Origin: Escherichia coli
GTDB lineage: Bacteria; Pseudomonadota; Gammaproteobacteria; Enterobacterales; Enterobacteriaceae
Direction: 5' to 3' (one strand)
Assembly: GCF_030013595.1 (NCBI RefSeq)
Contig: NZ_CP122768.1
Length of the DNA stretch: 64,000 bases
The notes under the pieces are model-generated. The model was given only the letters and a program-made list of their open reading frames with translations. It was not told where the DNA came from and ran no database searches. Of the stretch, positions 3,654 to 44,931 are shown piece by piece; position 1 is the first letter of the stretch, and each line of letters starts with the position of its first letter. Made by a program: the position numbers and the translations under genes.

Positions 3654-4343
3654 GTACGGGCGTCCAGCCAGATGAATAAAACGCGCGCAAATATGCGTCA
3701 TTTTTTGATGTGCATCAAGTTTTTTCACCAGTTTGAGAAAAAATCATCAACAGCAACTTGCCCTTATCCATCTTCAGAATAAGTATTATTGCGGATTTTC
3801 TTAACCCGTACTATACACATAGGGGCAATGATAAAAGGTGGCAAAAATGAATGTTTCCAGTAGAACCGTAGTACTGATAAATGTCTTTGCTGCTGTTGGT
3901 TTGTTTACTCTTATCTCTATGAGATTTGGCTGGTTTATTTGATGTAGTGATTTTGCACGCAGCACGTACTGTCAGAGAAATCAGTGCTCTGACAGTACGC
4001 AAGATCATCTCATACTCTCCAGGTTTACAACATTATCCTTAATATTTACTTCTTTTTCCTGACATCTACATTGAAATAAGTAGAAAACATCCCCCTCCTG
4101 TCGTCTATACAGACAGCTTACTGATTCAAAGGGAACCTTGTTTTCACATTTTTCTATCATCAATACTTTAGACGCGCGGGAGTCTATAAATGCTTTATAC
4201 TTTCAGGGAATAAAGTAAATATAAAAAGATGGCGTAAAGTATATGCATGGCAGGATGATTGCAACCTCCTTGATGACGCTGTCCCATTGAAATTGCAAAC
4301 CCCGCACTGGTTATCTTGCCCATTTATCATGCAGAACAGATAA

Positions 4344-5153
4344 TTATAGGTCTCTAAATATCTCAGAAAGATTGAATTTTTTATAGTCCATCTCTTGAAT
4401 ATTTCCATTTGATATCAATCGATTCATCTCTTCAACAAAATAATTTATATCATCACATTTGTTATTATCCGGAAGATCTGAGTAATTATAATTCCACCAC
4501 TTTATTCTCAACAATTCATCAATAACATTTGAATCAAATCTAAATCTGATTATTTTTGCTGGAACTCCTGCAACTATGGCATATGGGGGCACATCTTTGG
4601 TAACAACGGAATTGGCAGCAATAACAGCACCATCACCTATTGCGATGCCACCTTTCAGTACAACATCATTTCCTATCCAGACATCATTTCCTATAATCGG
4701 ATTTTCAGGTTTGGTAATGAATGGTTTCAATGTCCAGCTACGTTCAAACTCACTCTTAGCAAACTTATCAAATTCACCGTTATAAGTCATCATGTGAGTA
4801 GTAAAACGATTCAAAGGATGATTTCCACCCATTATTTTTACATTTGATGCAATACTACAAAATCGACCTATATGTATATTCCCTGTAAAATGACAGGTCG
4901 GGAATGAAAAAGCGCCGACACTGGAGAAATTTTTTACAGGCATTGTTGAATATTCTTCAGCAATAACATTATCTTCAATTGTTATCTTGTCACCTTTTGA
5001 GAAAAGAAATAAATTTCTTTCTTTATACGACTTCTTCCCCTTATGATTTAAAAAGATTTTATTATCCATACAAAACTCAAAGTGTTTTTTCGCCCACCTG
5101 AAGGTAAGGGTTTTATTTTTATCTTCCGTGAATTTATACAATTGAACTTTCAT
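4344..5153 (-). CDS. hexapeptide-repeat xenobiotic acetyltransferase, Vat/XAT-like (streptogramin A / chloramphenicol acetyltransferase family)
   Basis: 269 aa; C-terminal left-handed beta-helix repeats IGNDVWIGNDVVLKGGIAIGDGAVIAANSVVTKDVPPYAIVAGVPAKIIRFRF followed by LLRIKWWNYN, closely resembling the Vat family signature; very AT-rich codon usage unlike flanking core genes. Confidence 0.7.
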   Translation of the reverse strand: MKVQLYKFTEDKNKTLTFRWAKKHFEFCMDNKIFLNHKGKKSYKERNLFLFSKGDKITIEDNVIAEEYSTMPVKNFSSVGAFSFPTCHFTGNIHIGRFCSIASNVKIMGGNHPLNRFTTHMMTYNGEFDKFAKSEFERSWTLKPFITKPENPIIGNDVWIGNDVVLKGGIAIGDGAVIAANSVVTKDVPPYAIVAGVPAKIIRFRFDSNVIDELLRIKWWNYNYSDLPDNNKCDDINYFVEEMNRLISNGNIQEMDYKKFNLSEIFRDL

Positions 5154-5375
5154 TGTTAATACTTCTACTTATAAATTATTAGGTTAATAACGATACTCTA
5201 AAGCCTTATGCGAATCAACTATGACAGGATGAAAAATCACCAACATACATTTAGATCATAATAACTGCCTAATTTTTCCGCTAGTTATTAATGTAATCAT
5301 TCTGATACTTAATCACCATTACACTCAGAACCTAAAACGATAGTGGCCGCCCTATAACAGCCACTAACATTTAAC

Positions 5376-12453: not shown

Positions 12454-12567
<114 letters not shown>

Positions 12568-12609
12568 CCCTAATATAATGCCCCCACAATAACACGAGGG
12601 GGTACAACA

Positions 12610-12996
12610 ATGTTCAATATCATGATTCGTAAATTTGGCGAGATGACTTTCGAGAAAGCTGGTGTTGCTCGTACCGAAGAAGAAGCAATGGCCTTAGTTC
12701 TGGTAGCACTGAGATCATCACCTGAGATTATCGACGCTGAATATGTAGCTGCTGAGGGTGAGATTAAAGAGATTAAAGCGGTGGCTAAGGAATTAGGTGT
12801 TAAAGGTTTCCGTAAGCTGAGATTGAATCGTGAGACTTATGTAATTGGACAGCAAGGACAATACCTAGATGAGAATACCGTGATTGTTCTACTGAATAAG
12901 ATTACCCGCTACGGTTGGAAGATTGAGCAATATAAAACGTGTTTCGAATTATACGAAAAAGGTTTGCTGGATACTCTGACCATCGTTCGCGCTTAA
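12610..12996 (+). CDS. hypothetical protein (prophage attL-proximal)
   Basis: 128 aa ORF with RBS GAGGGGG upstream; no recognisable family. Confidence 0.5.
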   Translation: MFNIMIRKFGEMTFEKAGVARTEEEAMALVLVALRSSPEIIDAEYVAAEGEIKEIKAVAKELGVKGFRKLRLNRETYVIGQQGQYLDENTVIVLLNKITRYGWKIEQYKTCFELYEKGLLDTLTIVRA

Positions 12997-13304
12997 TTAA
13001 TTTCTAATTTGGTGGGTGTAATTCCCACCGCTTTTTAAACTGGAGAATCAAACATGTTAGCTTTTATCTCATTCGTGGGAGGTAGTCTCACAACTATGAT
13101 TAGTCTTTCTTATCTTGTCGTTAGTATGGGGTGAGCAATGAAACAATTTCATGATGGCATTTCATCTAAGACATTCAAGAAAGAATATAGCGGATTGTGT
13201 ATTAACTGGATTGATTTGATTGGTGCGGTTGTGTTTGGTCTGGTAATTAGCATCAATTTTTAACGATATAAATATATCGTAATTCATTCAAAGAGGATTC
13301 AATT

Positions 13305-13646
13305 ATGAAAAAGACTATCTACGCAATTATTGTTTCTGTGTGTGTTGGTGGCATCGGTGGATTTGTTTGTGGGTATGACTATTCCGATACTCAACATCAA
13401 GAGACTATCCGGTCAAATAAGGCCGAGATTAAGGATCTGAATCAGGAGATTAGCCAGTTAGAAAATGCTCTCTCACTCAAAGACAGTGAATATAGCGAGG
13501 TTTATGCAGATAAACAAAAATATTGGAAAGAGAAAGATAATCTCGTTGTTTACGGGATGAAATTGTGTAAGAGCATGAAGGACGAGCGCAGTTGTTTAAT
13601 GGAACTTGCCCTTAAAGGTAACGTGACCATCGACTTCAAAGACTAA
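13305..13646 (+). CDS. membrane-anchored coiled-coil protein (moron-like)
   Basis: 113 aa; N-terminal hydrophobic anchor IYAIIVSVCVGGIGGFVCG then coiled-coil; RBS AAGAGGATTC. Confidence 0.5.
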   Translation: MKKTIYAIIVSVCVGGIGGFVCGYDYSDTQHQETIRSNKAEIKDLNQEISQLENALSLKDSEYSEVYADKQKYWKEKDNLVVYGMKLCKSMKDERSCLMELALKGNVTIDFKD

Positions 13647-13675
13647 TTAATTCAAATAACAAAGAGGATTCTATT

Positions 13676-13921
13676 ATGAAAAAGATTATCGCTGGTATCG
13701 TTCTTGCTCTGGGTTTGGTTGGTGCTGCAAATGCCGAACAATATGTACAGGGTGATAGTGTCAAGCGTGCTGCCGTTGCACCTTCTTTAAATCAACTGTG
13801 TACTGAATTAGCACAGGTTGCCGGAGTTGGTGACGATGACGACTTTATTACTGCGTGTGTGTGGAGTCATATCGAGGATATTAATAAACGTGATGCAAAA
13901 CTAACTGGAAAGAAATATTAA
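13676..13921 (+). CDS. small secreted protein (moron-like)
   Basis: 81 aa; Sec signal peptide MKKIIAGIVLALGLVGAANA with AxA cleavage site; two Cys in mature part; RBS nearly identical to that of the preceding gene. Confidence 0.55.
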   Translation: MKKIIAGIVLALGLVGAANAEQYVQGDSVKRAAVAPSLNQLCTELAQVAGVGDDDDFITACVWSHIEDINKRDAKLTGKKY

Positions 13922-13971
13922 TGACTTACTAACCAATGCCCCTATCGTTATAATACACGGTAGGGGCGTTT

Positions 13972-15666
13972 TTGTTTGGAAATGGTATGAAAACTAAACT
14001 ATATTCGTATATTCGCTTCTCGTCTATGCGTCAGAATGATGGTTCGAGTTATGAACGGCAAATCAGGATGGCGAGAGAGGTTGCGGCAAAGTATGACCTT
14101 GAACTGGTAAATGATTATCAGGATCTGGGTGTATCTGCGTTTAAGGGTGCTAACTCTAAAACAGGGGCGCTATCTCGTTTCCTTGATGCAATTGGTAGAT
14201 CCGTTCCTGTTGGTAGCTGGCTATTCATTGAAAACTTGGACCGCTTATCCCGTGCCGATATTGTCAGTGCGCAGGAGTTATTCCTTTCAATCATCCGTAG
14301 GGGAATAACCATTGTTACTGGCATGGATAACAAGATCTACTCGCTGGATACTGTTACCGCTAATCCGATGGACCTGATGTTCTCCATCCTTCTATTCATC
14401 CGTGGTAATGAGGAAAGTCAGACTAAGCGCAATCGTACTAACTCAAGCGCATTGATTAAGATTAAAGCTCATCAAGAAAATCCCCAGAATCCGGCAGTGG
14501 CAATCGAGGAAGTTGGAAAGAATATGTGGTGGACTGATACCACATCTGGTTATGTGCTTCCTCATCCGGTCTTCTTCCCTATTGTTCAGGAAGTTGTGGA
14601 ATTACGCAGGAATGGACGGTCAACCGCCGAGATACTGGATCACCTTAACGCGACATACACACCACCACCAGCCGCAAGTCACAAGAGGCATTCAAACTGG
14701 TCACGGGCAATGATTGAAAGGTTGTTCCATACCCGCGCTTTGATTGGTATCAAGGAAATCTCTGTAGATGGCGTTAAGTATGAGTTAAAGGATTATTATC
14801 CTCGTGTGCTAGATGACGCTGAGTTTTATCACCTTAAGAAAAGCATTGGTGTTAGAGCATGTAACTATGGAGACAAGGAAGAAGTTAAACCGATCCCCCT
14901 GCTTAGTGGTGTTAATCTGCTGAAATGTGATCATTGCGGTTCCGCTATGGTTAAGGTGAAAGGAACAAACAGACGGCCTAACCAATATCGTTATTCATGC
15001 GATGCAATGCGCTCTAGTCGTATTGAATGTGTGCATACAAACTGGAGTTTTCGCGGCGACCAATTAGAGAAAGCTGTATTGCAATTGCTGGCTGATAAAA
15101 TCTGGATTGCTGAAGATAAGGCTAATCCGGTTCCGGCTTTGAAAGTACAGATTGATGAAATATCACGCAAGATTGATAACCTGATTGCCCTTTCTGCTAT
15201 GACAGGAGCAACGAAGGAGCTAGCCGATCAGATTACTACCCTCAATAGCGAGCGTGAAACACTCTACAATCAGATCAAGATGGCAGAAGAGGAAATGTAT
15301 TCTGTGGACTCTCAAGGCTGGGAGAAGCTCGCAGAATTTGATTTAGAAGATGTTTACAACGAGGATCGCATTAAGGTCCGGTTTAAGATTAAGCAAGCTC
15401 TAAAACGGATCGGGTGTAGCAGGATTGACAAGTACAAAAACTTGTTTGTACTGGAATACATCGATGGCAAGACCCAGAGAGTTGTAATAGAAAATTCAAG
15501 AGGACCGAGGAAAGGCCGGATCTTCGTTGATTTGAAGACTATCAATGATAGGCAGATTCTGGAGAGTAACGGGCTTGTTCTGCATCCATGTTTAGACATG
15601 CTGACAGATAAGAACTGGAAACCAGAAGAGGAAATACCAGGTCCATTACAGGAATTTGGAATTTAA
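13972..15666 (+). CDS. large serine recombinase (putative prophage integrase)
   Basis: 564 aa; resolvase-type catalytic motif YIRFSSMRQ at N-terminus, Cys-rich zinc-ribbon segment CDHCGS...YRYSCDAMRSSRIEC and coiled-coil, typical of large serine integrases. Confidence 0.8.
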   Translation: MFGNGMKTKLYSYIRFSSMRQNDGSSYERQIRMAREVAAKYDLELVNDYQDLGVSAFKGANSKTGALSRFLDAIGRSVPVGSWLFIENLDRLSRADIVSAQELFLSIIRRGITIVTGMDNKIYSLDTVTANPMDLMFSILLFIRGNEESQTKRNRTNSSALIKIKAHQENPQNPAVAIEEVGKNMWWTDTTSGYVLPHPVFFPIVQEVVELRRNGRSTAEILDHLNATYTPPPAASHKRHSNWSRAMIERLFHTRALIGIKEISVDGVKYELKDYYPRVLDDAEFYHLKKSIGVRACNYGDKEEVKPIPLLSGVNLLKCDHCGSAMVKVKGTNRRPNQYRYSCDAMRSSRIECVHTNWSFRGDQLEKAVLQLLADKIWIAEDKANPVPALKVQIDEISRKIDNLIALSAMTGATKELADQITTLNSERETLYNQIKMAEEEMYSVDSQGWEKLAEFDLEDVYNEDRIKVRFKIKQALKRIGCSRIDKYKNLFVLEYIDGKTQRVVIENSRGPRKGRIFVDLKTINDRQILESNGLVLHPCLDMLTDKNWKPEEEIPGPLQEFGI

Positions 15667-15942
15667 GCGGCCTAAATCGACGTATAACGAGCTAAAACAG
15701 TTAAGGGGTACAGATGTACCCCTTTTTAATTTAATTGCGTTAGGCAGCGTAAGCAAGTTTCATAGTAGTTTCCTCTAAAATAATAAGTTCACTACTATTT
15801 ATCAGAGAAAATTGTCTTACTATTGCATTCTCTATCTGGATGTGGGTATAGGCGGGATTGAATACGGCAAAACTGAAACATTCCACTACTGCAATAAATC
15901 ACTAAACAATATAAAGAATATTGCAAGTGTGGAGTGGAACTA

Positions 15943-16254
15943 ATGCAAGATATTAAAATTCATTTTCAAGATTACAGTTTCGTTAAGGTTGATTGCTCTC
16001 CTTCTATCGGAATGGAATTAAGAGATTATTTCTCGTTTGAGGTTGAAGGGGCTAGGTTTAGCCCCCGTTACAAGTATTCTGGCTGGGATGGACGAATAAG
16101 ACTGTTTACGCATGAAAACACCCTACCAATTGGACTATTAAAAACGTTGGGTGTCTTCGTTAAAAATATGGGCTATTCAGTCTGGATTGACCCCAGATTG
16201 CTTGAGAAGGAAGATGTAACCAAAGACGCGATTAATGAATGGATTGATTCCTTA
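15943..16254 (+). pseudogene. UvsW-like SF2 helicase, N-terminal fragment (interrupted by IS1)
   Basis: MQDIKIHFQDYSFVKVDC... runs in frame into the IS1 left end; the frame continues on the other side of IS1. Confidence 0.7.
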
Positions 16255-16309
16255 GGTGATGCTGCCAACTTACTGATTTAGTGTATGATGGTGTTTTTGA
16301 GGTGCTCCA

Positions 16310-16585
16310 GTGGCTTCTGTTTCTATCAGCTGTCCCTCCTGTTCAGCTACTGACGGGGTGGTGCGTAACGGCAAAAGCACCGCCGGACATCAGCGCTATC
16401 TCTGCTCTCACTGCCGTAAAACATGGCAACTACAGTTCACTTACGCCGCCTCTCAGCCCGGTACGCACCAGAAAATCATTGATATGGCCATGAATGGCGT
16501 CGGATGTCGCGCCAGTGCACGCATTATTGGCGTTGGCCTCAACACGATTTTCCGCCACTTAAAAAACTCAGGCCGCAGTCGGTAA
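16310..16585 (+). CDS. insA: IS1 InsA
   Basis: 91 aa [43 protein letters not shown]..., zinc finger plus HTH. Confidence 0.9.
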
Positions 16586-17007
16586 CCTCGCGCATACAAC
16601 CGGGCAGTGATGTGATTGTCTGCGCTGAAATGGACGAACAGTGGGGCTACGTCGGTGCTAAATCACGTCAGCGCTGGCTGTTTTACGCGTATGACAGGAT
16701 GCGGAGGACGGTTGTGGCGCACGTCTTCGGTGAACGCACTCTGGCCACACTGGAGCGTCTTCTGAGCCTGCTGTCGGCCTTTGAGGTCGTGGTATGGATG
16801 ACGGATGGCTGGCCGCTGTATGAATCACGCCTGAAGGGAAAGCTGCACGTTATCAGCAAGCGTTATACTCAGCGCATTGAGCGGCATAACCTGAATCTGA
16901 GACAACATCTGGCAAGGCTGGGACGGAAGTCACTGTCGTTCTCAAAATCGGTGGAGCTGCATGACAAGGTCATCGGGCATTATCTGAACATAAAACACTA
17001 TCAGTAA
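16504..17007 (+). CDS. insB: IS1 InsB reading frame (expressed as InsAB' by -1 frameshift)
   Basis: 167 aa frame overlapping insA 3' end; DDE transposase core. Confidence 0.85.
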
Positions 17008-17022
17008 GTTGGAGTCATTACC

Positions 17023-18210
17023 GATTCCTTAGAAGTGTATTCCGGTAGCAATAAAATCAATCCTTATTGGTATCAAAGGGAGGCAGTCTTTCAGGGTATC
17101 CACAATCGCCGTAGAATGCTGGTTCTTCCTACCAGTGCCGGAAAGTCATTGATTGCTTGTATGCTGTCTCGTTGGTACTTAGAGAACTACACCGGAAAAG
17201 TGTTAATCATTGTTCCGACTACATCGCTAGTGGTTCAAATGAGGGATGATTTCATCGATTATAGGCTATTCCCTTATGAAGCAATTCATACAATGATGAG
17301 TGGTAGCGGGAAACATCCGGGAGACAGGTTAATCACGGTTAGTACCTGGCAATCAGCTTGCAAGATGCCTCCTGAATGGTTCCGACAATATGGAATGTTG
17401 ATAGTTGATGAATCGCATAAGGCTAGTGCCAAAAATATTACCAATATCATCAATGGAATGAATCATTGCCAATTTAAGATCGGCATGACTGGTTCCCCGA
17501 AAGAATCAAAGTGCCATTTAATGCAGTATGTCGGGCTTTTCGGTGATATTTCTAAGATCGTGAGTATTGACCGCCTGATGGAAGAAGGGCAGGTGACAAA
17601 ACTGAAAATTAACTGTCTTTTCCTTCGTTATACAGATGAGGAATGTAGCGCGGTTAAGGGGCGAGAATATGCGGAAGAGATCAAGTATATTACGTCTAAC
17701 CCACGACGAAATAAGTTTGCTTGTAATTTGGCGCTAAAACTAGCTAAGAAGGGCGAAAACGTATTCCTGATGTTCCGCAATACTAAGCACGGAAAACTTA
17801 TGTATGATGCGTTACAGAAGGTACACGACAAGGTTTATTATATTGACGGTGGAGTTAAGACAGAAGAACGTGATGAATTTAAGAAAATGGCGGAGGGTGA
17901 CACCGGGATCATTTGCGTTGCATCCTATGGTGTGTTCTCTACTGGTGTTTCAATTAAGAATTTGCATCATGTTATTTTCGGTCATCCAGTGAAGGAATCA
18001 ACTATCGTTCGTCAGAGTATCGGTCGTGCATTGCGTAAACATGGTTCTAAGGATATTGCAACGGTCTGGGATCTTATAGATCATCTGTGTATATTCGGTC
18101 GTAACGGAAAAGTCAAGCATAAAAATTATGCGGTAAAACATGCACTTGAGAGAATCCGCTATTATCTAACCGACAAGTTCAGCTATGCAACTAAAACAAT
18201 TGCTATATAA
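17023..18210 (+). pseudogene. UvsW-like SF2 helicase, C-terminal fragment
   Basis: Walker A LVLPTSAGKSL, DExH box IVDESHKA, helicase C-terminal motifs VASYGVFSTGVSIKNLHHVIFG and GRALRKHGSKDIATVWDL; in frame with the N-fragment across the IS1 target duplication. Confidence 0.7.
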
Positions 18211-18241: not shown

Positions 18242-18595
18242 TTATCCATTCCATCGTGATTTTTTCGATCTGGAATCGATATGCGTAAAGGTTTTATATT
18301 TGCCTAAGCCGTATTGAGTAGGATATTTCCCATCAAGATAAGCATGGACAATATCAGGGGAGACACCCTTGATCACAATGTCAGCCGCACGGCCTCGAAC
18401 GTGATAGCTGTTGGTTGCACCGCCTACATTCTTGTTATGAGTCGGGCAACGGTTGCCACTGTTAATAATCACTGGTTTACCGAAGTGCTCTCGTACATCC
18501 TCAAGAATTACCAGTAATTCAGCGTCGATTGTATCATAATCACATTTTCCGCATTTACATTTAAATTCCTTGCGAGAAAAATGCTTACTTAACAT
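18242..18595 (-). CDS. endolysin, peptidase M15 family (L-alanyl-D-glutamate peptidase type)
   Basis: 117 aa; zinc-binding signature SYHVRGRAADI ... FTHID typical of VanY/M15 phage endolysins. Confidence 0.75.
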   Translation of the reverse strand: MLSKHFSRKEFKCKCGKCDYDTIDAELLVILEDVREHFGKPVIINSGNRCPTHNKNVGGATNSYHVRGRAADIVIKGVSPDIVHAYLDGKYPTQYGLGKYKTFTHIDSRSKKSRWNG

Positions 18596-20249: not shown

Positions 20250-23200
20250 TTAAGAAACAGTAATACCGGTAGTTGCTTTTTTAGTTACCATTACCGTTAA
20301 ATCACTGATCCATGTGCTAGGCGTCCAGTTGTTGATTGCGCTTGATTGCACTTCAAAGGTCAAGGTCACAGCACCCTTACCCGCTGGCATATCAATAACA
20401 CCTGAGTAAAGACCAGTATTACCGCCATACGCCCTATTATACAACTCTGACCCATTCTTACGAACAATCAGGCGACAGGTGTCGTAATAGGTATTATTGT
20501 TCGACCCTTCACGCGCTCGCAATCCACCAAAACTAACAGCCGGAATAACGATTTGACGATCGAACTTGTGATCATCTTCAACGCGAACAGTGACCGTACC
20601 TTGTGGATAGCCAGCATAACCATTATCAACGTTAACATCACGATGCGGGAACTTACGTCCAATCACCTTAACGAAATCACCCTTAACCTGAGTAGCTTCA
20701 AGCATACCCTTAATAACACAGCTAGAGTTAATCGTGACGTTGTTCAGAGTACCAGAATCGGCAGTGATATTACCTTTAACGGTTGCATTCATGAACGTAG
20801 CGGACCCGTTCTTGTTGATATGCCATCCGGTAGATCCGTTCCAGTCGGAAGACTGGATATAGTTACCAATTTTAGCGTTATCAATTGCGCCATTTACAAT
20901 CTTGGCGTTGGTGATCGCGCCGTCTTGGATTTTCGCTGAATTGATCGCAGCATTGCCAATTTTAGCCGTGGTGATACTAGCATCAGTAATCTGTGCTGAT
21001 CCGATTGAGGCATTACGAATCATGGCACTGTCGAGATAAACCTTGTTACCTTCGATACCAAACGGGCATACTTCCGATCCGTTCTGTGGAGCTACCGCGA
21101 TTTTATCAGCATTAAAGATGATTCTCGTCGGTTGCGCCGGATCGTTGGTTGCGCTCATGTGAATACCAGCCACGCGACCATCTGCATTAACTGCCAGATT
21201 ATATTTGCTGTTAATGGTTCCTTTCAAAGCATCGATTTTTACATCTGCTTCCTGATTCACGCCAGCAATCTTGCCATCCATTTCTACCCGAACTTGATCA
21301 ATCTTGCTTGCGCTTGCTGCCTCACTGGTAGCAATTGCTTGTTTCAGGGTAGTAGCAGATGCGCTGACTTCGGATTTAATATCGCCTTTCAGTTCAGCTT
21401 TAACCTGATCAATCTTAGTGGAGCTAGCTTGCTCGCTGGTAGCAATCAGACTCTTTAAGGTATTGGCTGAGGCTTGGACCGTCTGCCCTGTTTCGGTAGT
21501 GATTTGCTTATGCATTGCATCAATTTTAGCATCGGCATTAGCGCCAGCTTGAGCAATAGCATCCGCGATAGTTTCATCTAAGCGGTCTTGTAAACCAATC
21601 AGGTCTTCCAGTGCTTCTTTGTCCTGATCGTCCCAGCTAATTGTAGATCTCATTTGCATGAAATAAGGTTCAGACCAAACAGCATCATCCATACCGAAAA
21701 TATCGTAGTGAGCACCACGGATATAATAATCACCGTCAGCAATATCAAAGGAAGTATGGCTAACACTATTCGTGCTTACTGCCCTTGCATCGGAGAAAGT
21801 GTTATCGGTTGCATACTGGATGATTGACCCTGCATAATCATGTTCTACGTCATCTGCCCAGCTAACAAACACACTATTAAAGCCACCACGCGCACTAAAA
21901 CCTTTCATTGGCTTATGTTGTGGGTTGATAGCCACTAAACGCGCTGGGGCGCTCTCTGAGTTGTTATAGCCCTTAGCCGATACTTCTACCGTCAGTTGAC
22001 GCGAAAGGCCGTTAAACTGGTTCATATCAAGCGTATAAGTCCATGATTCAGGATCGCGGGTACGGTACTGAATAGACTTACCAGCCTTGTTAGTCACCTT
22101 GATAATGTATGCTTCAAACAGGTCACTAAACTTGTTAGTTTCACCGTTGATCTCAACATCTAATTGTTGCTGATTTTCCCATTCGATAATCAGATCATTA
22201 CCTTCGAAAGTTCCTGGCGTGCTACCCTGATTTTTGATTCGAATAACCGGAGTCGGCAATTCATAGGTAACAGTCGGATTCTGGTTAATCAGTTCTACCC
22301 ACTCGGAACGAGCAATAATACCGAAAGCACAAACTCGGTAATCATAAGAGCGATCTTTCGCCAGTGCATTGACACTGAAAATTTGCTGTGAAGTCTGTCC
22401 CAGCTTAATCCAGTTAGGCGATCCGCTTACACGGTAATCAATCTGGAAACCATAACGGTTAAAATCTTCCGGTGCATCCCATGTCAAAGTAACGTTTTTA
22501 CCGTAAATCGTCTCACCAGTTGCCTTAATCCTGAAATTAGTAGGCTTCTGTACTGTCATTGAATCCGGTAAACCACTTGGTCTATTGTCTGGAGTTGCCG
22601 CATAGTTCAGGTCAGTATAAACCTGAGAATTATATTCTGTGGCGGTGATAGTCATCATCCCAGCAATACCAGAATCAATCGAGCGATCAATTGCAGTAAT
22701 ACGCCATAAGGAATTATTCAGCTTCAATTCATCATAGGTTACGCTGATAACGTCCCAAACTTCGGCAGTGAATGCGTCAGTAGTCATAAAGCTGATAACC
22801 TGAGTGATACGAGATTTATTTCGCTCAATGCTCGCGAGTTTATCAATCTGATCTTTAGACTTAACAAAACGATATTCAATATCTTTAGCGATAATTCGAC
22901 CATCTTGACGAATAGTAGCATCGTTTTCAGCATCAGCCGGATAACGTAGCATTTGCTCTGAATAGTCAATTGATGGTTCTTGATACATCGCGTTAATGGT
23001 ATTGAAATAACCGTTAGTGCCACCTGTTTTCAGTGATACCTTACCCATCATGATATTGTCTTCATTGAAGGTATGCTTAACAATATCAGGAGCATCCAGT
23101 TTCAGCGTAATACGTCCAAAGGATTCGAACATCACCCCGCCGAAAGTCTGCATAAGATTAGTCAAGTTCTCTTTAAAGCTGGCGTTCGGATCACATGCAC

Positions 23201-24026
23201 CGTTTGAATGTAGATCCATCTGGCGTACTTGTTTACGTACTTTCAGGAATGAATCAACGTTAATGTTTTCAATTGGTACAGATAAGCCATATTTTTCATT
23301 TGTTAGGTAGTGGAAAATCTGGTCCACGCCGTTAGTGCTAGCCTCAATAGCATTAGTTTCAAGGTTACGAATCTTTAAGCCCATAACATCGACTGCTACC
23401 TGGCTATTTGGCTGGAGAATATCAACACCAGCAGCAAGAGATTTGTCATCACGACGTAACACAATACACATGGTTGCAATACCATTGCCTTTGTAGTTGT
23501 CGTTCCAGTCTGATCCTAAATGACGTTTTGCCAGTGACAAAGCGGTGTTAGGATTCTTACCCGTGCGAAACTCAACTTCTAAAACTTTCCGGTATTCTTC
23601 TTTAATGTTGCCTTTGTCCAGTACACCATCACGGATCGTCATGTTCTTACCAACAAGAACATTTTTGTTATCGATAAACAGTGCTTTGTAATGGTCGATT
23701 TCACCCTCGGCAATTGCGAAGATTTGCACTAACTTATTGTTTTCTTGCTTAGAAATTGCTTTGTAAACGCAGATTGCACCCGTGCGGGTAGTACCAAAAA
23801 GAACGGGTAATACTGTCTTCGGATCGTTTGATGTTCCTAGTGTCACCGCATTATCTGGGCTTTGTACTTTCGGTGTTTTTGGTGCGCCTACAGTGGAAGC
23901 GATCAAGGTCATTGCACCAGCAGCCATACCGATAGCGACTGCGGTCATAACCGAAAATGTTGCGGCTGCCGCCATCCCCGCCGAAGCACCAGCAATAACC
24001 GCGCCTACCAATACTTCAAATCCCAT
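20250..24026 (-). CDS. central tail fiber / host-specificity (J-like) protein
   Basis: 1258 aa; hydrophobic N-terminus, large beta-rich body and C-terminal Ser/Thr-rich fiber region; positioned after the distal tail genes. Confidence 0.65.
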   Translation of the reverse strand: MGFEVLVGAVIAGASAGMAAAATFSVMTAVAIGMAAGAMTLIASTVGAPKTPKVQSPDNAVTLGTSNDPKTVLPVLFGTTRTGAICVYKAISKQENNKLVQIFAIAEGEIDHYKALFIDNKNVLVGKNMTIRDGVLDKGNIKEEYRKVLEVEFRTGKNPNTALSLAKRHLGSDWNDNYKGNGIATMCIVLRRDDKSLAAGVDILQPNSQVAVDVMGLKIRNLETNAIEASTNGVDQIFHYLTNEKYGLSVPIENINVDSFLKVRKQVRQMDLHSNGACDPNASFKENLTNLMQTFGGVMFESFGRITLKLDAPDIVKHTFNEDNIMMGKVSLKTGGTNGYFNTINAMYQEPSIDYSEQMLRYPADAENDATIRQDGRIIAKDIEYRFVKSKDQIDKLASIERNKSRITQVISFMTTDAFTAEVWDVISVTYDELKLNNSLWRITAIDRSIDSGIAGMMTITATEYNSQVYTDLNYAATPDNRPSGLPDSMTVQKPTNFRIKATGETIYGKNVTLTWDAPEDFNRYGFQIDYRVSGSPNWIKLGQTSQQIFSVNALAKDRSYDYRVCAFGIIARSEWVELINQNPTVTYELPTPVIRIKNQGSTPGTFEGNDLIIEWENQQQLDVEINGETNKFSDLFEAYIIKVTNKAGKSIQYRTRDPESWTYTLDMNQFNGLSRQLTVEVSAKGYNNSESAPARLVAINPQHKPMKGFSARGGFNSVFVSWADDVEHDYAGSIIQYATDNTFSDARAVSTNSVSHTSFDIADGDYYIRGAHYDIFGMDDAVWSEPYFMQMRSTISWDDQDKEALEDLIGLQDRLDETIADAIAQAGANADAKIDAMHKQITTETGQTVQASANTLKSLIATSEQASSTKIDQVKAELKGDIKSEVSASATTLKQAIATSEAASASKIDQVRVEMDGKIAGVNQEADVKIDALKGTINSKYNLAVNADGRVAGIHMSATNDPAQPTRIIFNADKIAVAPQNGSEVCPFGIEGNKVYLDSAMIRNASIGSAQITDASITTAKIGNAAINSAKIQDGAITNAKIVNGAIDNAKIGNYIQSSDWNGSTGWHINKNGSATFMNATVKGNITADSGTLNNVTINSSCVIKGMLEATQVKGDFVKVIGRKFPHRDVNVDNGYAGYPQGTVTVRVEDDHKFDRQIVIPAVSFGGLRAREGSNNNTYYDTCRLIVRKNGSELYNRAYGGNTGLYSGVIDMPAGKGAVTLTFEVQSSAINNWTPSTWISDLTVMVTKKATTGITVS

Positions 24027-25756: not shown

Positions 25757-28111
25757 TTACATCTTACGGCGTTGTGCGTCTTCTACCGCCTGAGCAACTA
25801 ACTTAGCGTGACGTTTGATAGCATCCATGACCATCTTGTCTGAGCTATTAACGTTGCCGTTAATGTTCAAAGGCGCATTAACTTCAATCGGTTGAGAGTT
25901 GCCACCGCCTGATTTTTGAGCAGCAAGGAAGTCTTTCAAATCACCGTTAGTACGCTGATCAACTACTCGTTCACCCTTATCAAGCAACCATGTACCCTCA
26001 CGAGGGATGTTATCAATACCATCATGAGCCATACCGCTAACGTTAGTAGACTTGATGTTGGCGATGCTCCCCATGTTCTGAGAAACAGCCAATGCAGCAG
26101 CCGCGATTTTTTGACCTGTGGTTACGTTGGTCGGATCGTTCCATGCATCGGTAGCAGCCGTCCACATGTTCACCGTCGCTTGTCCAATAGAGAATGCTTT
26201 ATGAGCAGTGAAAGCCATCTGCATAGCTTTAGTGTTTTCCTGCCCGAAGAGAGTCATTGCAGCAGCAAAACCGCCATACATATCATCAGCTATTGACTGA
26301 CGAGCATCAGCATATTTCTTCTCAATTGCAGCCATTCGTTTTTGATGGTTTTCATTGAGTTTTTCTAATTCTTCCATCCGTTTAGCCGGATCGGTGATCC
26401 CATCAATCTTGATTTTACCGGTCTTATAATCTTGTTCCGCTTCCGATTTCTCTTTATCGATTGCATTAAATTTAGCAAACGGATCATTTGGATCTTGATA
26501 GTCTAAGCTATTGGTCAACTGATTGGTTTTAAAACCATCCATTCCATGCAAAGAATCTTCAATCTGTGAATAACTTTGCTCGGTATCATTCACACGACGC
26601 ATATATTCTTCGTAGGAGATAGCTTTACCATCAAGTAACCGTTTATGGCTTTCTAACTCGTTGTCCCTGATTTGTTGCAAAACTGTTAAGGCATTCAAAG
26701 CATCAACCGGATCAGCACCCAGCATCATTTTATAGATGTTTTCTGCGTTCTGGTCTAACAGTTGCTGACGTTTAGCGGCTGCGTCTTGCTGTGAGATTAA
26801 GCCCAGATCTAAAGCAGTGTCCAAATCTTTCAAGCTGGCTTCTAACTGCTTGTTTTGAGAAGCAATAGACGCGGCTGTCTGTCCTTGCAATTTAACATCA
26901 AGAGCATTCAGTCGCTTGATTGCATCCTCGCGTGCTTTCTGTGCTTTTTCTGCGGCTTCCTTAGCCTTTTTAGCTGCCTCTTCCGCTTTCTTCTTGGCTT
27001 CTTCTTGTTCTTTTTTTGTTGGACCAGTGACGCCTCCACCTTGACCCGTTGGGGTAAATCCAGTATCCGATTTATTTCCAGTGATAGTAATTACCGGATC
27101 GCCGTTTTTATCACGGGTAACTCCTTCACTATCCACCCAACGATCAGGATAATTTGGTTTATTGTTGAAGCTGGCTTGTCCACCTGCTAGACCAGTAGAA
27201 CTATAACCATGCTTGTTAATAAAACCACCGTTAGCCATAGCCATATTCTGGCGAGCTTTTTCAAACCTTTCATTAAACGTCTTTAATGCGTTGAATAAAG
27301 CGGTCTTTTCCCAATCTTTATCAAACCAGTTGTATAACTTGTTCATCCCTTCAACAACTGGATTTAGCGCATTTGCTGCCATACCCTTTAAGTTATCGGT
27401 AAGGGTATCCATATTTTTAGAGAATTTATTATATTCTTCGGCTGTATCATTGGTGATTTTAACAGTTTGCTGATTAATGGCGTTTACAGCTTCCTGATAA
27501 GATCCGTATTTCTGCAATTCATCAGCCATATGACTTGAATCACTGGCTAACGATTCCATCATAAACTTAACATCAGCGATAGACGCACCAGCCTTGCGCA
27601 TATCATAGAAGACCTTGATTGCCGCTTTCATCCCGCCTTGTGGATCGTTCATAAACTCGGCATAATCTTTAATCTTCAAACCTACACTTTCTAGGTCGTC
27701 TTCAATACCGCCACCGTTACGCCATGCATCAGCCAGTTTATCTAAGGTGTCTTTGTTAATATCACCAAATTTCTCAACGGTTAAGCCAGTGCCAGAGAAT
27801 TGCTTCTCTAATTTCTGGAGTGTTTCGACGGTTAAACCAGTTGCTTTTGAAACTTCGCTGTATTCCTTTACATAATCACCGATGGCATTTGCAGCAGAGA
27901 CAGCACCAGCAGCCAGACCAACAAAACCACCAGCAGCCAAAGCAAGCGATCCACCAGTTCCGCGAAGGGTTCCACTTAAACTAGATAAACCACCAGACAA
28001 ATCAAGATTCATTGCCCTTTCTGAAAGGTTATCAAGCATGTCAATCGCTTGGTTGGTACTTCTCCTTAGACCGTCGTTATTCCCTTCTATTGTTACTATA
28101 TGTCTTGTCAT
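25757..28111 (-). CDS. tail tape measure protein
   Basis: 784 aa, long alpha-helical/coiled-coil regions, Gly-rich segments, lysine/glutamate-rich stretch; canonical position after the chaperone pair. Confidence 0.75.
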   Translation of the reverse strand: MTRHIVTIEGNNDGLRRSTNQAIDMLDNLSERAMNLDLSGGLSSLSGTLRGTGGSLALAAGGFVGLAAGAVSAANAIGDYVKEYSEVSKATGLTVETLQKLEKQFSGTGLTVEKFGDINKDTLDKLADAWRNGGGIEDDLESVGLKIKDYAEFMNDPQGGMKAAIKVFYDMRKAGASIADVKFMMESLASDSSHMADELQKYGSYQEAVNAINQQTVKITNDTAEEYNKFSKNMDTLTDNLKGMAANALNPVVEGMNKLYNWFDKDWEKTALFNALKTFNERFEKARQNMAMANGGFINKHGYSSTGLAGGQASFNNKPNYPDRWVDSEGVTRDKNGDPVITITGNKSDTGFTPTGQGGGVTGPTKKEQEEAKKKAEEAAKKAKEAAEKAQKAREDAIKRLNALDVKLQGQTAASIASQNKQLEASLKDLDTALDLGLISQQDAAAKRQQLLDQNAENIYKMMLGADPVDALNALTVLQQIRDNELESHKRLLDGKAISYEEYMRRVNDTEQSYSQIEDSLHGMDGFKTNQLTNSLDYQDPNDPFAKFNAIDKEKSEAEQDYKTGKIKIDGITDPAKRMEELEKLNENHQKRMAAIEKKYADARQSIADDMYGGFAAAMTLFGQENTKAMQMAFTAHKAFSIGQATVNMWTAATDAWNDPTNVTTGQKIAAAALAVSQNMGSIANIKSTNVSGMAHDGIDNIPREGTWLLDKGERVVDQRTNGDLKDFLAAQKSGGGNSQPIEVNAPLNINGNVNSSDKMVMDAIKRHAKLVAQAVEDAQRRKM

Positions 28112-28845: not shown

Positions 28846-29352
28846 TTAAGAGATTTTCAAAGTCTGCTTAGTGCCAGTCTTCTTAATGTTGGTAAGGAAA
28901 GCAGCCGGAGGATTGCTTAACCAGTAATAATGAAAACCACTTTGCATACTGTTATAAGGAACAGTGACAGCAGCACCACCCAAATTAACGGTTATATTCC
29001 CCGCTCTACCGTTCTGGAGATATACAGCCATAGTAGGAGTACCACCATTGAATTGACCAACGATAACGCCAATCAGACGCCCTACGCCCACGTTTTCGGG
29101 GTTCTCCATAGATCCTTTACCGCGCATGTCAGTTACTGGATAGTTTGAAGCAGTTACACCCCAGTTATTACCCAATGAAGTAGACCACGCAGCAGTAGCT
29201 ACAACCGTATCCATACCACGACCACACATCGCGCTCATATTACCAGGTACACCAACTTTTAACGCTTGCATAGCCTCACGCATCCATCTCTTGCCAGTTA
29301 CAGAAACAGCCGATGATCCGACCCAGCCGGGCTTATTAACGACATTTGCCAT
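28846..29352 (-). CDS. hypothetical tail protein
   Basis: 168 aa, RBS GGAG before the ATG, tail module context. Confidence 0.45.
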   Translation of the reverse strand: MANVVNKPGWVGSSAVSVTGKRWMREAMQALKVGVPGNMSAMCGRGMDTVVATAAWSTSLGNNWGVTASNYPVTDMRGKGSMENPENVGVGRLIGVIVGQFNGGTPTMAVYLQNGRAGNITVNLGGAAVTVPYNSMQSGFHYYWLSNPPAAFLTNIKKTGTKQTLKIS

Positions 29353-34440: not shown

Positions 34441-34911
34441 TTAAAAACGCGCTAGATAAGAAAATTTAAGGCTAAGTGTCCCAACGATACCCCCATCACT
34501 AGAATCATCGTCATAATCGGTATTAGAAGCTACTGGAGTGATATCTGAAATTGAGAAGCCCAAATCTTTAAAACGTGGGTTATCCGGCTGAATCTGGATT
34601 ATCTGGCAAATACCCTCATGAATTTTGGTTTCATGAATCTGAGAATACAATTGCATTTCGATAACGCATTCAGCTTGCATTGCATTACCGCCACGGACCC
34701 TATTGTAAGTCTCATTCATTCCGGTGATCCAACAAACCACGTCATCACTAAAGCCTTGCTGAGTTTGTTCTACGTTTAAAGCCAGACCTAAATCTTGTTC
34801 GATAATATCCTGCAAGGCGCGTTTGATTTTCAGTCTAGGCATATTATTAACGGTAGCGAGCATGTGTACCCCCTGCCAGAGTGATAAAGCAATCAGTTGT
34901 ATTGTCACCAT
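34441..34911 (-). CDS. head-tail joining protein candidate
   Basis: 156 aa ORF in head-to-tail junction region; true start may be the internal Met. Confidence 0.35.
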   Translation of the reverse strand: MVTIQLIALSLWQGVHMLATVNNMPRLKIKRALQDIIEQDLGLALNVEQTQQGFSDDVVCWITGMNETYNRVRGGNAMQAECVIEMQLYSQIHETKIHEGICQIIQIQPDNPRFKDLGFSISDITPVASNTDYDDDSSDGGIVGTLSLKFSYLARF

Positions 34912-35286: not shown

Positions 35287-37293
35287 TCACTCTTCGCCAA
35301 TTTTCAGAACTTTCAGAGCTTCCGGCTGTGCTACAACGTAGTCCAAATCTACAAAGATACGAGGCACTACCGCACCACGGTCACGGTATGTAGTTAGATC
35401 CATATCCAGTTCCAGACCGCCCCACTCACCGATGGTAATACCGGAGAAGTCACCCAGAACGATGTGGTCTGCCGGAATAACGCCAGAAGTAACTACTTCG
35501 TAACCAGCCAGTTTGCCGTTTTCGATGATATAACCGGAAACGCCGTTATCTTTCAGGGTAGATTCCAGTTCGGCAGCAGTTGCACCGCTCATTGCAAACT
35601 TGATCGCCTGAGCAGGAACGCCAGCGTCGGTCAGTGCTGCAATTTCTTTCAGGAAGTCTTTATAAGAGAAAGCAGCTTTCTTGGTAACGCGGCTAGCGTC
35701 TACCAGTTGCTTAACCAGACCAGCCGGACCACGAGCATTTTCTTTATCAGACAGAATCAGTTGTTCCAGTTTGATACGAACAGCTTTGTTAATGTGATCA
35801 GTGATCAGGGTAGCGATGCCCGGAACGGTTTTCAGCGACTGACGGCTGATCGGGTTGCCACCAGCAAAAGTTTTCGGAGACAGTTTCACGTTCGCAAATT
35901 CAGCTTTGCTTTCCGGTGCAGCACCGTTTTCATCAACGAAGCCGAAAGCGTCAACGCTGGAAGCGGTCATTTTTGGAATAGCGGTCGGGGAGTTCAAGCC
36001 ACTGTAAACAGTCACACCCAGACGACCCAGACACGAAGCAGGAAGCAGCATTTCGATGTAGGATTCAGTCATCAGTTTTTCGTCAGTGATAGCGGTCAGG
36101 TCGGCTTTGGTGTTACCAGCAGAAGCAGCACGCAGAGCAGCAGCCGGAACGAATACAGAGCCACCACGAGCAGCACGACCACGCTGCATAGTTGCAGTAG
36201 CAGCCATTGCGGAATATTCAGCTTCGTTAGCGCCGAGCACGTCGCCATCTACCAGGGAGCGGATTACGTTATTAAGATCGAAAGTTTTTTCCATGATTTG
36301 TTCCTTATTAATTTGTTCGTTATTACGTTGAGCATTGGTAATGTTATTTAGTGCCTTAGTGCGGAATGCTTCCGGCGTCATGTCTTTAATTGCCAATGCG
36401 CGTGCTAATTCAGAGTCATCAATATTTAGTTCGCGTGCAATTTCGCGAATTTCTAATTCGTCTTCTTCGGAACGTTCAGCCACTTCCTCGGTTTTTTCTT
36501 CTTCAACCGGAGCGGCTTCACGTTCTTCTTTTACTTCTTCTGTTTCCCGAACAGTTGAACTATCATCATCAACACTTTCAGGATGTTCAGCGTCTTTTCC
36601 GTCTTCGAGATTTTCATCTTCTTTATTCTCTTCAACTTGGCGCTCTTGAGTTTCTTCAACTTCCGGTTCTTTATTTTCTTCTACCGGAGTTTCTTCAACC
36701 TGAGCGGCTTCTTGTTCTTCTTTGATTTCTTCGATTTGTTCTTTAGTCATATCGCGTTTAGCCCCCAAATTAACTGTGATAGTATTTAGAGAGCGATTTA
36801 AACCGACCGTATCGTCTGCGGGCACCGACACCCATGAAATCTCGTGAGGAATCCATTTAGAAACAATGAGTTGCGATTTAGCGTAGTCGATGTGATATTC
36901 TTTAATGTCATAACCGACAGAAATTTTTTCCATCGTACCTTCAATGACTTTATTGCGAATATCATTAGCCAAAGTGCCATGCTTAGAGAATCTAACGGTC
37001 GCACGGCCTACGTTATCCGCATCGATTCGAGCGTTACAAACGACACCAATGTGATTATCGAAATTGTGATTGAACAGCAACGGAGCGTTATTATTCAGAC
37101 GAGACAGATCAACCGCTTCCGGTGTATGTACCAGAATTTCATCTAATACCACCATTTCTTGATTTTGCTCATCCCAAAATTGGCGCTGATAAGGCTGTGT
37201 ACTTGAGAAAGCAATTTCAAATTCGTATTGATCGTTATGCCCTTCATTAATAACTCCACCGTAACCGTTAAGATCGCGGCGAAATTTAAGCAT
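35287..37293 (-). CDS. prohead protease - scaffold - major capsid protein fusion
   Basis: 668 aa; N-terminal protease-like domain, central Glu-rich acidic linker (scaffold/delta-like), C-terminal HK97-like capsid region; directly downstream of portal. Confidence 0.65.
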   Translation of the reverse strand: MLKFRRDLNGYGGVINEGHNDQYEFEIAFSSTQPYQRQFWDEQNQEMVVLDEILVHTPEAVDLSRLNNNAPLLFNHNFDNHIGVVCNARIDADNVGRATVRFSKHGTLANDIRNKVIEGTMEKISVGYDIKEYHIDYAKSQLIVSKWIPHEISWVSVPADDTVGLNRSLNTITVNLGAKRDMTKEQIEEIKEEQEAAQVEETPVEENKEPEVEETQERQVEENKEDENLEDGKDAEHPESVDDDSSTVRETEEVKEEREAAPVEEEKTEEVAERSEEDELEIREIARELNIDDSELARALAIKDMTPEAFRTKALNNITNAQRNNEQINKEQIMEKTFDLNNVIRSLVDGDVLGANEAEYSAMAATATMQRGRAARGGSVFVPAAALRAASAGNTKADLTAITDEKLMTESYIEMLLPASCLGRLGVTVYSGLNSPTAIPKMTASSVDAFGFVDENGAAPESKAEFANVKLSPKTFAGGNPISRQSLKTVPGIATLITDHINKAVRIKLEQLILSDKENARGPAGLVKQLVDASRVTKKAAFSYKDFLKEIAALTDAGVPAQAIKFAMSGATAAELESTLKDNGVSGYIIENGKLAGYEVVTSGVIPADHIVLGDFSGITIGEWGGLELDMDLTTYRDRGAVVPRIFVDLDYVVAQPEALKVLKIGEE

Positions 37294-42523: not shown

Positions 42524-43363
42524 TTAGATACCAAAGACAGCAAGTGATCCGGCGTTCTTACGAATCAATGCGGCGGTATTATTAACGATTGCACGAGCAT
42601 TGTTAGGCTGCGGTAATTTCAAAGTTGCTATCGTCTCTTCCTCAATCAAGCCCAATTCAACCAGCACTGGTAAACAGTCAGTTGTGAACTCAAGCTGACC
42701 ATGTGCTGATTGTCGGGCATACATGTAAGCAGGAGGAAGAACATCATAGCCACAAGGCTTACCAGAAGCATCCAGACGGCGCTCAATGTGTTTAGCCTCA
42801 CACAATCCCTTAAGAATACGTTGTACCTTCGTAGAGCCTCGTTTTTCGCCCAATAAGCGGGTTAAGCTGTGCCCGTCAATGGCACGGCGAACATGAAGAT
42901 CAATTAATTGTTCTTTTTCTTCCGCTAAAGTCAGAGCCTTACGAATCCAATCAACTTCGGTCATCTTGCTTGCGTCTGGGAAAGCGTTATTCTTTAATTC
43001 TTCATTTTCTTTCTTCAAACGCTGCCATTCATCAACCAGCATTGCGGTATAAACCGGATCGGTCTGTGCGATAACAATGTAGCTATCACGTTCAGTCAGA
43101 AGATAAACTTCAATTGGTTTGCCTTTACGGCCTAAACGGTCAGTTTTTGACCAAAACGCCACTGGCGGTTTGGTTACAATTTGAGCTTCAACCAGACGAT
43201 CAACCGTTCTCATAATATCGGTGTGACGGTTTTCACGCCCCATTAGTTCAGCAATACGCCAGGTAGAAATTGATAATTCTTTCTCTACAGAGTCATTTGC
43301 AGCAGTCAGGTCAACAGAAGAAGCAGTTTTAACAGCAGTATTCATAGTAGTAACAGTATTCAT
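42524..43363 (-). CDS. Rha-family phage regulatory protein (antirepressor-like)
   Basis: 279 aa; N-terminal segment STWRIAELMGRENRHTDIMRTVDRL fits the Rha domain pattern (recalled signature, unverified). Confidence 0.45.
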   Translation of the reverse strand: MNTVTTMNTAVKTASSVDLTAANDSVEKELSISTWRIAELMGRENRHTDIMRTVDRLVEAQIVTKPPVAFWSKTDRLGRKGKPIEVYLLTERDSYIVIAQTDPVYTAMLVDEWQRLKKENEELKNNAFPDASKMTEVDWIRKALTLAEEKEQLIDLHVRRAIDGHSLTRLLGEKRGSTKVQRILKGLCEAKHIERRLDASGKPCGYDVLPPAYMYARQSAHGQLEFTTDCLPVLVELGLIEEETIATLKLPQPNNARAIVNNTAALIRKNAGSLAVFGI

Positions 43364-44743: not shown

Positions 44744-44931
44744 CGGGGGCAAATTTCAGGGGCAAAAATTAGATTTTCAGGGGCAAAAATAGTGGGTTTC
44801 AGGGGCAAAAATGAGGGGCAAAATCACTGTTTCCCAGAATTTCAGGGGCAAAAATAGTGGGTTTCAGGGGCAAAAATGGGATGTGGAATCTAGGGGATTT
44901 TGGTTCAGGGGCAAAATTCAGGGGCAATTTT
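44744..44931. repeat. iteron-like direct-repeat array, about 9 copies of TTCAGGGGCAAAAAT at mostly 21-22 bp spacing
   Basis: copies at 44757, 44777, 44799, 44842, 44864, 44905, 44918 plus degenerate copies at 44745 and 44813; two 22-bp units AGTGGGTTTCAGGGGCAAAAAT are identical. Confidence 0.65.

Follow-up and report, generated by a model that had tools for sequence, protein, structure and literature searches.

By what means did a prophage come to lie inside hicB, an antitoxin gene of Escherichia coli, and what decided that it should lie there? The question is raised by a stretch of 64,000 nucleotides from contig NZ_CP122768.1 (the whole of which is called the window here), where a low-GC prophage of the siphovirus type occupies approximately positions 12568-48419 (~35.9 kb) and interrupts hicB. 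Near its left end lies the gene for a large serine recombinase (LSR). An earlier note on this DNA saw in this protein the integrase of the element, acting at a 9-bp core inside hicB. The answer preferred here, with a probability of roughly 0.85, keeps the first of these statements and narrows the second. An LSR of 559 amino acids would be the integrase of a temperate phage of ~35 kb and sipho type, recombining the attachment site of the phage (attP) with that of the bacterium (attB) by exchange at a TT dinucleotide in hicB.

A prophage in hicB and its serine integrase

The DNA of the window is chromosomal, and around ydcR-hicB-hicA it is collinear with E. coli K-12 except for three differences: the insert of 35.9 kb, another of 1.3 kb at 4049-5374, and a missing IS609. 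The GC content is ~0.50 outside the large insert and ~0.41 between ~12.5 and ~48.5 kb. BLAST alignment with K-12 breaks exactly at the two prophage junctions. When positions 12460-12567 are joined to 48422-48521, the empty site so rebuilt agrees with K-12 hicB at 203 of 208 positions, without a gap. Measured from crossover to crossover, the element is 35,854 bp long, an IS1 insertion of 777 bp counted in. The identical junction in hicB is found in ~31 of 5426 complete E. coli genomes; the site itself is present in 5349.

The junctions share TTTAGGTTT, as the earlier note had it. This 9-mer has exactly two copies in the window, both on the plus strand, with one copy at each junction (12559-12567 and 48413-48421). 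By itself, of course, such a repeat is no evidence, as repeats so short arise by chance. Two or more copies of it appeared in 16 of 100 shuffles, in 56% of shuffles the two 500-bp junction windows are expected to have some 9-mer in common, and they do in fact share an unrelated 11-mer (12711 and 48288). The junctions, and with them the placing of the att site inside hicB, are validated because the empty site rebuilds K-12 hicB, not because of the statistics of the 9-mer.

In HicB, a protein of 138 amino acids, the 9-mer corresponds to codons 102-104 (K-P-K). These belong to the HTH_3 domain, which spans residues 88-134; the toxin-binding domain (3-67) comes before them. The gene is read on the minus strand, its stop codon appearing in reverse complement as TTA at 12454-12456. 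The product left in the lysogen is HicB 1-104 followed by CCKPQ from phage DNA, encoded beside an intact hicA.

What kind of protein is the recombinase? In the 564-codon open reading frame (ORF) at 13972-15666, Pfam recognizes Resolvase (residues 11-158, E 2.7e-14), Recombinase (PF07508, 203-291) and Zn_ribbon_recom (315-373), and the PHROG named "integrase" matches at 3.8e-58. In the 559-residue form, whose numbering is used for individual residues throughout, a catalytic domain (~1-155, with R10 and S12) is followed by a recombinase domain (RD, ~196-300), a zinc ribbon (ZD, ~301-375), a coiled coil (~382-438) and an extra beta-rich region (472-559). The sequence YIRFSS, which had been picked out as the catalytic motif, does align with the resolvase motif Y-x-R-x-S. 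Among 36 homologues, reaching down to 27% identity, Y8, R10, D85, R86 and R89 are invariant, as are the zinc cysteines C314, C317, C338 and C348, while S12 is conserved in at least 90%.

A single-sequence phmmer search of the PDB found no solved integrase at E<1e-3; a profile of the 36 sequences was needed. That profile matches the integrases of SPbeta (4e-19) and A118/LI (1e-12), the phiC31 integrase, and the catalytic domain of TP901-1. An AlphaFold2 model (mean pLDDT 78.6) has a catalytic domain, a long alpha-E helix (127-164), a helical domain (196-293), beta strands (312-356), two antiparallel helices (382-406 and 410-438) and an additional beta-rich C-terminal region. Its top Foldseek matches are the same serine integrases, and the catalytic fold is also like those of TP901-1, Sin and gamma-delta. 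DUF4368 is absent from the Pfam scan, and the protein does not fall in the multi-targeting, TndX-like class of Durrant et al. Membership in the LSR family is supported by the domain architecture, by the profile match to solved integrases and by the fold match. Here, a catalytic domain, an RD after the alpha-E helix, a ZD with four cysteines and a coiled coil, and the general plan of the att sites are found together.

The likeness to SPbeta goes somewhat further, since SPbeta, which integrates inside spsM, is another case of a prophage LSR with an intragenic host target. Its integrase from Bacillus subtilis, SprA/YokA (PDB 9dxd, 9dxf, 9dxh), is the best match both to the profile, of which it spans positions 88-496 of 540, and to the fold. 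Like it, the window integrase would need a separate recombination directionality factor (RDF) for excision. Unlike SPbeta, the window integrase belongs to a Gram-negative host, uses other att sites and another target, and carries the extra beta-rich region at 472-559; identity in the structural alignment is 12-15%. The phage A118 integrates inside comK. In the Listeria A118/LI integrase (PDB 4kis, 6dnw), the profile matches the RD, zinc ribbon and coiled coil (positions 187-461), and the attP described below, an imperfect dyad of ~50 bp with inner and outer blocks and a 2-bp core, agrees with the model that was built on that structure (PMC3783163). Here too identity is 12-15%, and the core dinucleotide and the sites are unrelated. 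Among sequenced phage isolates, the closest recombinases are the YbcK-type LSRs of lambdoid coliphages and gp53 of Burkholderia phage Bcep176 (tblastn E-values between 3e-44 and 6e-40, with no less than 80% of the length covered), with identity of only ~30% and with carrier phages that are unrelated at the DNA level.

The length of the protein requires comment. The 564 amino acids reported earlier count from a TTG at 13972, and that ORF does exist. The TTG, however, falls in the T-tract of a terminator-like hairpin (13935-13970), in relatives PGAP/RefSeq places the start at the ATG that corresponds to 13987, and public collections hold the 559-residue protein, on 19 contigs, and not the 564-residue form. 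For these reasons, the start is taken to be the ATG at 13987, and the protein is probably 559 amino acids long.

A PHROGs scan of the ~40 prophage ORFs found no other integrase, the LSR being the sole match in the category of integration and excision. The statement that it is the only recombinase of the element holds in this sense, the IS1 transposase at 16255-17022 having been missed. Its gene is separated from attL by ~1.42 kb containing three small genes, in agreement with the ~1.4 kb first described. That the LSR serves as the prophage integrase is borne out by its architecture, by the lack of a rival, and by the fact that its DNA-binding domains predict which gene is occupied.

Target choice and the probable point of crossover

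Of the 5426 complete genomes, 56 have the integrase gene, and homologues at 60-74% identity are found in Salmonella, E. fergusonii and Edwardsiella. Clusters of this integrase at 90% identity have 381 and 975 members. The related prophages occupy three sites, each inside a gene: hicB, ycdX and codB. Sixteen loci have a known flank (8 in hicB, 6 in ycdX, 2 in codB), and in 16/16 the RD/ZD allele predicts the insertion site. This ties the LSR to site choice. Compared with the window, integrases of the hicB class are at least 98% identical in the RD and at least 95% in the ZD; the corresponding figures are 80-82% and 77-83% for the ycdX class, and 50-51% and 64% for the codB class.

The catalytic domain behaves differently. 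It comes in two alleles, 100% and 80% identical to that of the window, and each is found in both the hicB and the ycdX class. Further, integrases that are 92-93% identical overall use different target genes. When 17 hicB-class sequences are set beside 15 of the ycdX class, no residue is shared at 25 diagnostic positions. The RD has 13 of these, the ZD 9 and the C-terminal tail 3; the catalytic domain and the coiled coil have none. On the DNA side, the P arm of attP differs between the two types at 11 of 25 positions. The P' arm is common to both, one phage of the hicB class having a "ycdX-like" P' arm.

In the established model, the att half-sites are read by the RD and ZD (PMC3783163), and the allele pattern fits this. 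Hybrids of the phiC31 and TG1 integrases, made by swapping domains in the laboratory, have an att specificity that follows the C-terminal DNA-binding domains (PMC13425240, PMC4197438). The pairing of two catalytic alleles with different RD/ZD alleles is a natural parallel to these hybrids, with the difference that the laboratory chimeras have measured activity, while what is known here is a correlation across natural prophages. As such, the correlation supports the view that the RD/ZD allele would set the choice of site. A fuller reading seems somewhat better than an even bet. It takes the family as a natural allelic series, in which ~25 RD/ZD substitutions together with one attP arm would move the target from hicB to ycdX, and a diverged cassette would move it to codB, while the catalytic domain, the coiled coil and the P' arm stay interchangeable. 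The pattern also advises caution before clusters at 90% identity with two or three targets are read as having relaxed specificity (the scheme in PMC10083194).

No paper was found that links hicB, ycdX or codB to a serine-recombinase prophage. Neither the N-terminus of the LSR nor attB nor "hicB" occurs in the searched supplements of the Durrant LSR catalogue.

Some individual loci deserve a separate remark. In the ycdX lysogen L008 (NZ_CP069522.1), at locus positions ~1880-1920, some 40 bp of ycdX on the junction side are far more diverged from K-12 than the remaining flank, and the annotated ycdX fragment continues into phage DNA; the junction may have been exchanged, or the ycdX allele may be foreign. 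Two E. coli strains, UTME-9 (NZ_CP157110.1) and BS74R-D (NZ_CP063332.1), have two integrase-gene matches per record and look like double lysogens with two sites occupied. UTME-9 has a hicB junction at ~2.81 Mb and the left end of a second prophage at ~3.38 Mb, whose integrase, at 93.5%, falls in the ycdX band. Five strains (PSJ-07, L73, PK5074, rl0044 and EC05) have the right junction in hicB and are not among the 56 genomes in which megablast found the integrase; in these, the integrase may be diverged or deleted.

Where do the strands cross? Here, the ycdX type is the most instructive. In strain OW848980, attL reads ...TTTGGGA-TT-CCCTAAT and attR reads ...GTTCGGG-TT-TCCGGG, and the empty site in K-12 (attB) is ...TTTGGGA-TT-TCCGGG. 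Thus, attP and attB of this type share TT only, with mismatches on either side, and no other dinucleotide gives both junctions. In the codB type, the stretch common to attP and attB is TTACC only. All three attP sites contain GGN-TT-NCCTAA, in a single register out to +/-25 bp. The dyad symmetry of attP also peaks at the TT, with 13 of 25 positions in the hicB type and 16 of 25 in the ycdX type (~6 expected), the matching blocks being an inner TTAGG and an outer TTATTG.GGG. The extent of attL, ~52 bp, is estimated from the reach of this symmetry to +/-25 bp.

In hicB itself, register homology with the ycdX type and the dyad symmetry of attP make the TT at 12566-67 and 48420-21 the most likely crossover. 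A crossover to the right of the 9-mer is excluded by position +1, which is C in attL of the window and G in attB. In some hicB lysogens, attP has G at +1 and the identity between attP and attB is 12 bp. By these comparisons, the 9-mer appears as a fortuitous identity between attP and attB and not as the crossover. To call it a 9-bp att core was therefore to overstate it: nine bases are indeed common to both junctions, and exchange most likely takes place at their 3' end, in the 2-bp TT.

The recombination would then run as follows. Dimers of the LSR would bind an imperfect-dyad attP of ~50 bp (TTATTGGGG...TTTAGGT-TT-CCCTAAT...CCCACAATAA) and attB inside hicB. Serine 12 would cut with a 2-nucleotide stagger at the central, non-palindromic TT. 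Rotation of subunits would exchange the halves to give attL (TT at 12566-67) and attR (48420-21), the 9-bp repeat being simply the stretch around the TT where attP and attB happen to match. The choice of site would be seated in the RD and ZD, and sister integrases that differ almost only there would enter ycdX or codB. Excision would require a phage-encoded RDF, and the hicB-type attP junction of the excised form is predicted to read ...ACATTTAGGT-TT-CCCTAAT....

Objections and alternatives

Several observations weigh against the account just given. The proposed shift of specificity by 25 substitutions does not account for the P' half-site, which is the same in the hicB and ycdX types. The TT call in hicB rests on register homology with the ycdX type and on a modest dyad symmetry; the window alone confines the crossover only to somewhere within the 9-mer, and the dyad symmetry of attB is weak, at 7 to 11 of 25. 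The exact attP junctions, whether of the hicB or of the ycdX type, have 0 matches in IMG/VR and in the JGI metagenome contigs, and INPHARED contains no phage isolate like the element, the fibre gene alone having matches there, in RB49-like phages at 77-83%. Last, the IS1 in the helicase gene and the lack of a named RDF leave present-day function in doubt.

As to the RDF, neither PHROGs nor NCBIfam names one in the prophage. The earlier note had said that this factor would not be identifiable from sequence, and the lack of a family match agrees with this. RDFs are reported to lack conservation of both sequence and synteny (PMC12286644). Small non-structural ORFs conserved in all three phage types are weak candidates only (Table 1). 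The ORF of 81 amino acids beside the integrase was considered and set aside because it looks secreted, its N-terminus, MKKIIAGIVLALGLVGAANA, appearing to resemble a signal peptide.

Among the alternatives, the one that survives best is that the element is a fixed, defective prophage, inserted once by its integrase, with att sites and recombinase that are now relics. This is a real possibility, albeit the less probable one. The DEAD/DEAH-box helicase gene, just downstream of the integrase, is split by an IS1 whose 9-bp target duplication is intact; because of this disruption, the inducibility of the window copy is in doubt, and the copy may be defective. The relative in OW848980 has three copies of IS903B within its prophage, and the missing attP junction in the viral and metagenome collections and the missing INPHARED relative also fit a relic. 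However, the integrase ORF is intact and its exact protein recurs on the 19 contigs mentioned, and the structural, lysis and packaging ORFs are full-length with strong PHROG matches. Three sites, occupancy of ~1% of E. coli genomes, and many alleles imply that the family has been mobile recently. Excision, moreover, should need integrase and RDF only, and not the helicase.

Public collections yielded two further observations on related elements. Contigs of ~35-37 kb in ENA/NCBI that carry the integrase were considered as circular phage genomes, and proved to be prophage junctions in hicB. IMG/VR holds 28 related loci, nearly all of them prophage calls trimmed at gene starts; 3 keep a flank.

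A second alternative accepts the integrase and moves the crossover. It would be some other dinucleotide of the 9-mer (the TT one position to the left, or TA or AG), with a register out of step with that of the ycdX type. Taken alone, the two junctions of the window are compatible with any position in TTTAGGTTT, a TT also stands at positions 7-8, and the dyad score at offset -2 is 11/25, against 13/25 at offset 0. Against this, placing the TT at positions 8-9 brings attP of the hicB type and attP of the ycdX type into base-for-base alignment as far as +/-25 in each arm (TTATT blocks and CCTAATAT), and a shifted register would break the GGN-TT-NCC core common to the three types. A shift is accordingly considered unlikely.

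Could the serine recombinase instead be an invertase or resolvase with another substrate, the insertion in hicB having been made otherwise? This is very improbable. There is a weak secondary match to the PHROG "DNA invertase" over the catalytic domain (7.2e-11), and some database relatives are labelled "site-specific invertase; DLP12 prophage". Small invertases and resolvases, however, lack the full LSR apparatus for DNA binding (RD, zinc ribbon and coiled coil) that is present here. No other integrase or transposase explains the junctions, and the RD/ZD allele predicts the site in every one of the sixteen loci.

Least probable of all is that the 9-bp repeat is a target-site duplication left by a transposase, an idea suggested by the similar size of IS1 and Mu-like repeats and by the 9 bp of the internal IS1 duplication, and dismissed by the dozens of genomes in which the insertion falls at one and the same nucleotide, by a repeat that is 2 bp in ycdX, 5 bp in codB and 12 bp in some hicB lysogens, and by the fact that the element encodes no DDE transposase except that of the internal IS1.

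Other features, and the meaning of the locus

Table 1. Features of the window, with coordinates, strand and basis of assignment.
Feature	Position	Strand	Basis or remark
hicB 3' fragment (codons 102-138 and stop)	12454-12567	-	K-12 hicB 3'-end alignment
attL	12541-12592	+	hicB (B) arm, TT 12566-12567, phage P' arm; 9-mer 12559-12567
128-amino-acid cargo ORF	12610-12996	+	phrog_14908, function unknown; RefSeq relatives "beta/alpha barrel domain-containing protein"
113-amino-acid ORF	13305-13646	+	hydrophobic N-terminus; no family match; variable among relatives
81-amino-acid ORF	13676-13921	+	98% conserved in ycdX- and codB-type relatives
Terminator-like hairpin, then T-tract	13935-13970	+	directly upstream of integrase start
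LSR (integrase), probably 559 amino acids	13987-15666	+	ORF reaches upstream to TTG 13972
Bidirectional terminator-like hairpin	15703-15724	.	after integrase gene
DEAD/DEAH-box helicase gene	15943-18210	+	split by IS1; in relatives intact, 1491 nt
IS1, 768 bp	16255-17022	+	own transposase; 9-bp duplication GATTCCTTA at 16246-16254 and 17023-17031
Prophage body	18242-47903	-	endolysin through small-terminase-like gene
Endolysin	18242-18595		PHROG
Tail tip	20250-24026		PHROG
Tape measure	25757-28111		PHROG
gp38-like adhesin	28846-29352	-	PHROG
gp37-like long tail fibre, distal subunit, 1153 amino acids	30059-33520	-	PHROG
Major capsid	35287-37293		PHROG
Portal	37339-38850		PHROG
Large terminase	39428-41332		PHROG
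HTH-like paralogues, 77 and 91 amino acids	41499-41732 and 45353-45628		weak RDF candidates
313-amino-acid ORF			weak RDF candidate; conserved across three phage types
Rha/Ant-like regulator	42524-43363		PHROG
Small-terminase-like protein	47346-47903		PHROG
attR	48395-48446	+	phage P arm, TT 48420-48421, hicB (B') arm; 9-mer 48413-48421
Truncated hicB' ORF	48395-48724	-	toxin-binding domain (3-67) kept, most of helix-turn-helix (88-134) lost
hicA toxin gene, 58 amino acids	48770-48946	-	intact

The gene content of the prophage is that of a siphovirus-like temperate phage, in that genes for packaging, head, tail and lysis are all present, PHROG matches to tail tube and distal tail included; replication and the control of lysogeny are poorly defined. 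The gp37-like gene is 77-83% identical in nucleotides to its counterparts in RB49-like (Krischvirus) T-even phages, and together gp37 and gp38 form a myovirus receptor-binding module that sits among the tail genes of a prophage of sipho type. The slot of the 128-amino-acid ORF is variable: the ORF is absent from the ycdX-type L013 and present in the codB type. An IS1 is found in the same neighbourhood as that of the window in the codB-type relative 39EVA.

Two non-coding regions also stand out. Iteron-like direct repeats, TTCAGGGGCAA followed by a run of A/T, lie at 44742-44940 in an ORF-poor, AT-rich gap of ~0.8 kb. There are 8 copies of AGGGGCAA in this array, all on the plus strand, and 10 in the window, a number reached in 0 of 100 shuffles. 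The array could be a replication origin or a set of operators. The second region, of ~290 bp (47904-48190), lies upstream of the small-terminase-like gene and is near-invariant in the hicB, ycdX and codB types; a packaging site and a late promoter are possible roles for it. The slot between this stretch and the P arm is variable: it is filled by a gene of 101 amino acids in the ycdX type and is empty in the codB type, and in the window it has only a remnant-like ORF of 33 codons.

Of the smaller differences from K-12, the segment at 4049-5374 (~1.3 kb) is of low GC, absent from K-12, and lies between patD and the yncL region of K-12. It contains an ORF of 269 amino acids (4344-5153, minus strand) that, judged by eye, resembles a hexapeptide-repeat acyltransferase. 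The K-12 IS609, between ydcL and ydcO, is missing at 53323/53324, where the flanks are joined cleanly. Rfam, at gathering thresholds, finds no RNA gene in the window. ARAGORN proposes a tRNA-Gln(ttg) of 91 nt at 34586-34676 on the plus strand; this is probably false, as it lies inside an ORF on the opposite strand (34441-34911) and has no Rfam match.

What, then, does the locus mean? As a system, it is of an ordinary kind, a routine module for prophage integration that calls for no conceptual change. Characterized serine integrases come mostly from Gram-positive hosts. Here, attP, attB and a probable TT crossover are defined for an uncharacterized serine integrase that is native to E. coli.

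For the bacterium, the insertion spares HicA and the toxin-binding half of HicB while removing the DNA-binding domain of HicB, and it may alter regulation of the toxin-antitoxin pair in lysogens. One might go further, and propose that integration into hicB and excision from it act as a reversible switch on HicAB autoregulation. This is less likely than the reading of the family as an allelic series.

The added interest of the locus is the natural three-site allelic series itself, which maps the choice of target to the RD and ZD. The differences between integrases that use two targets fall in the two DNA-binding domains, which could be of use to those who would engineer specificity. If the substitutions are causal, the family would offer a compact natural map of specificity-determining residues for the reprogramming of serine integrases.

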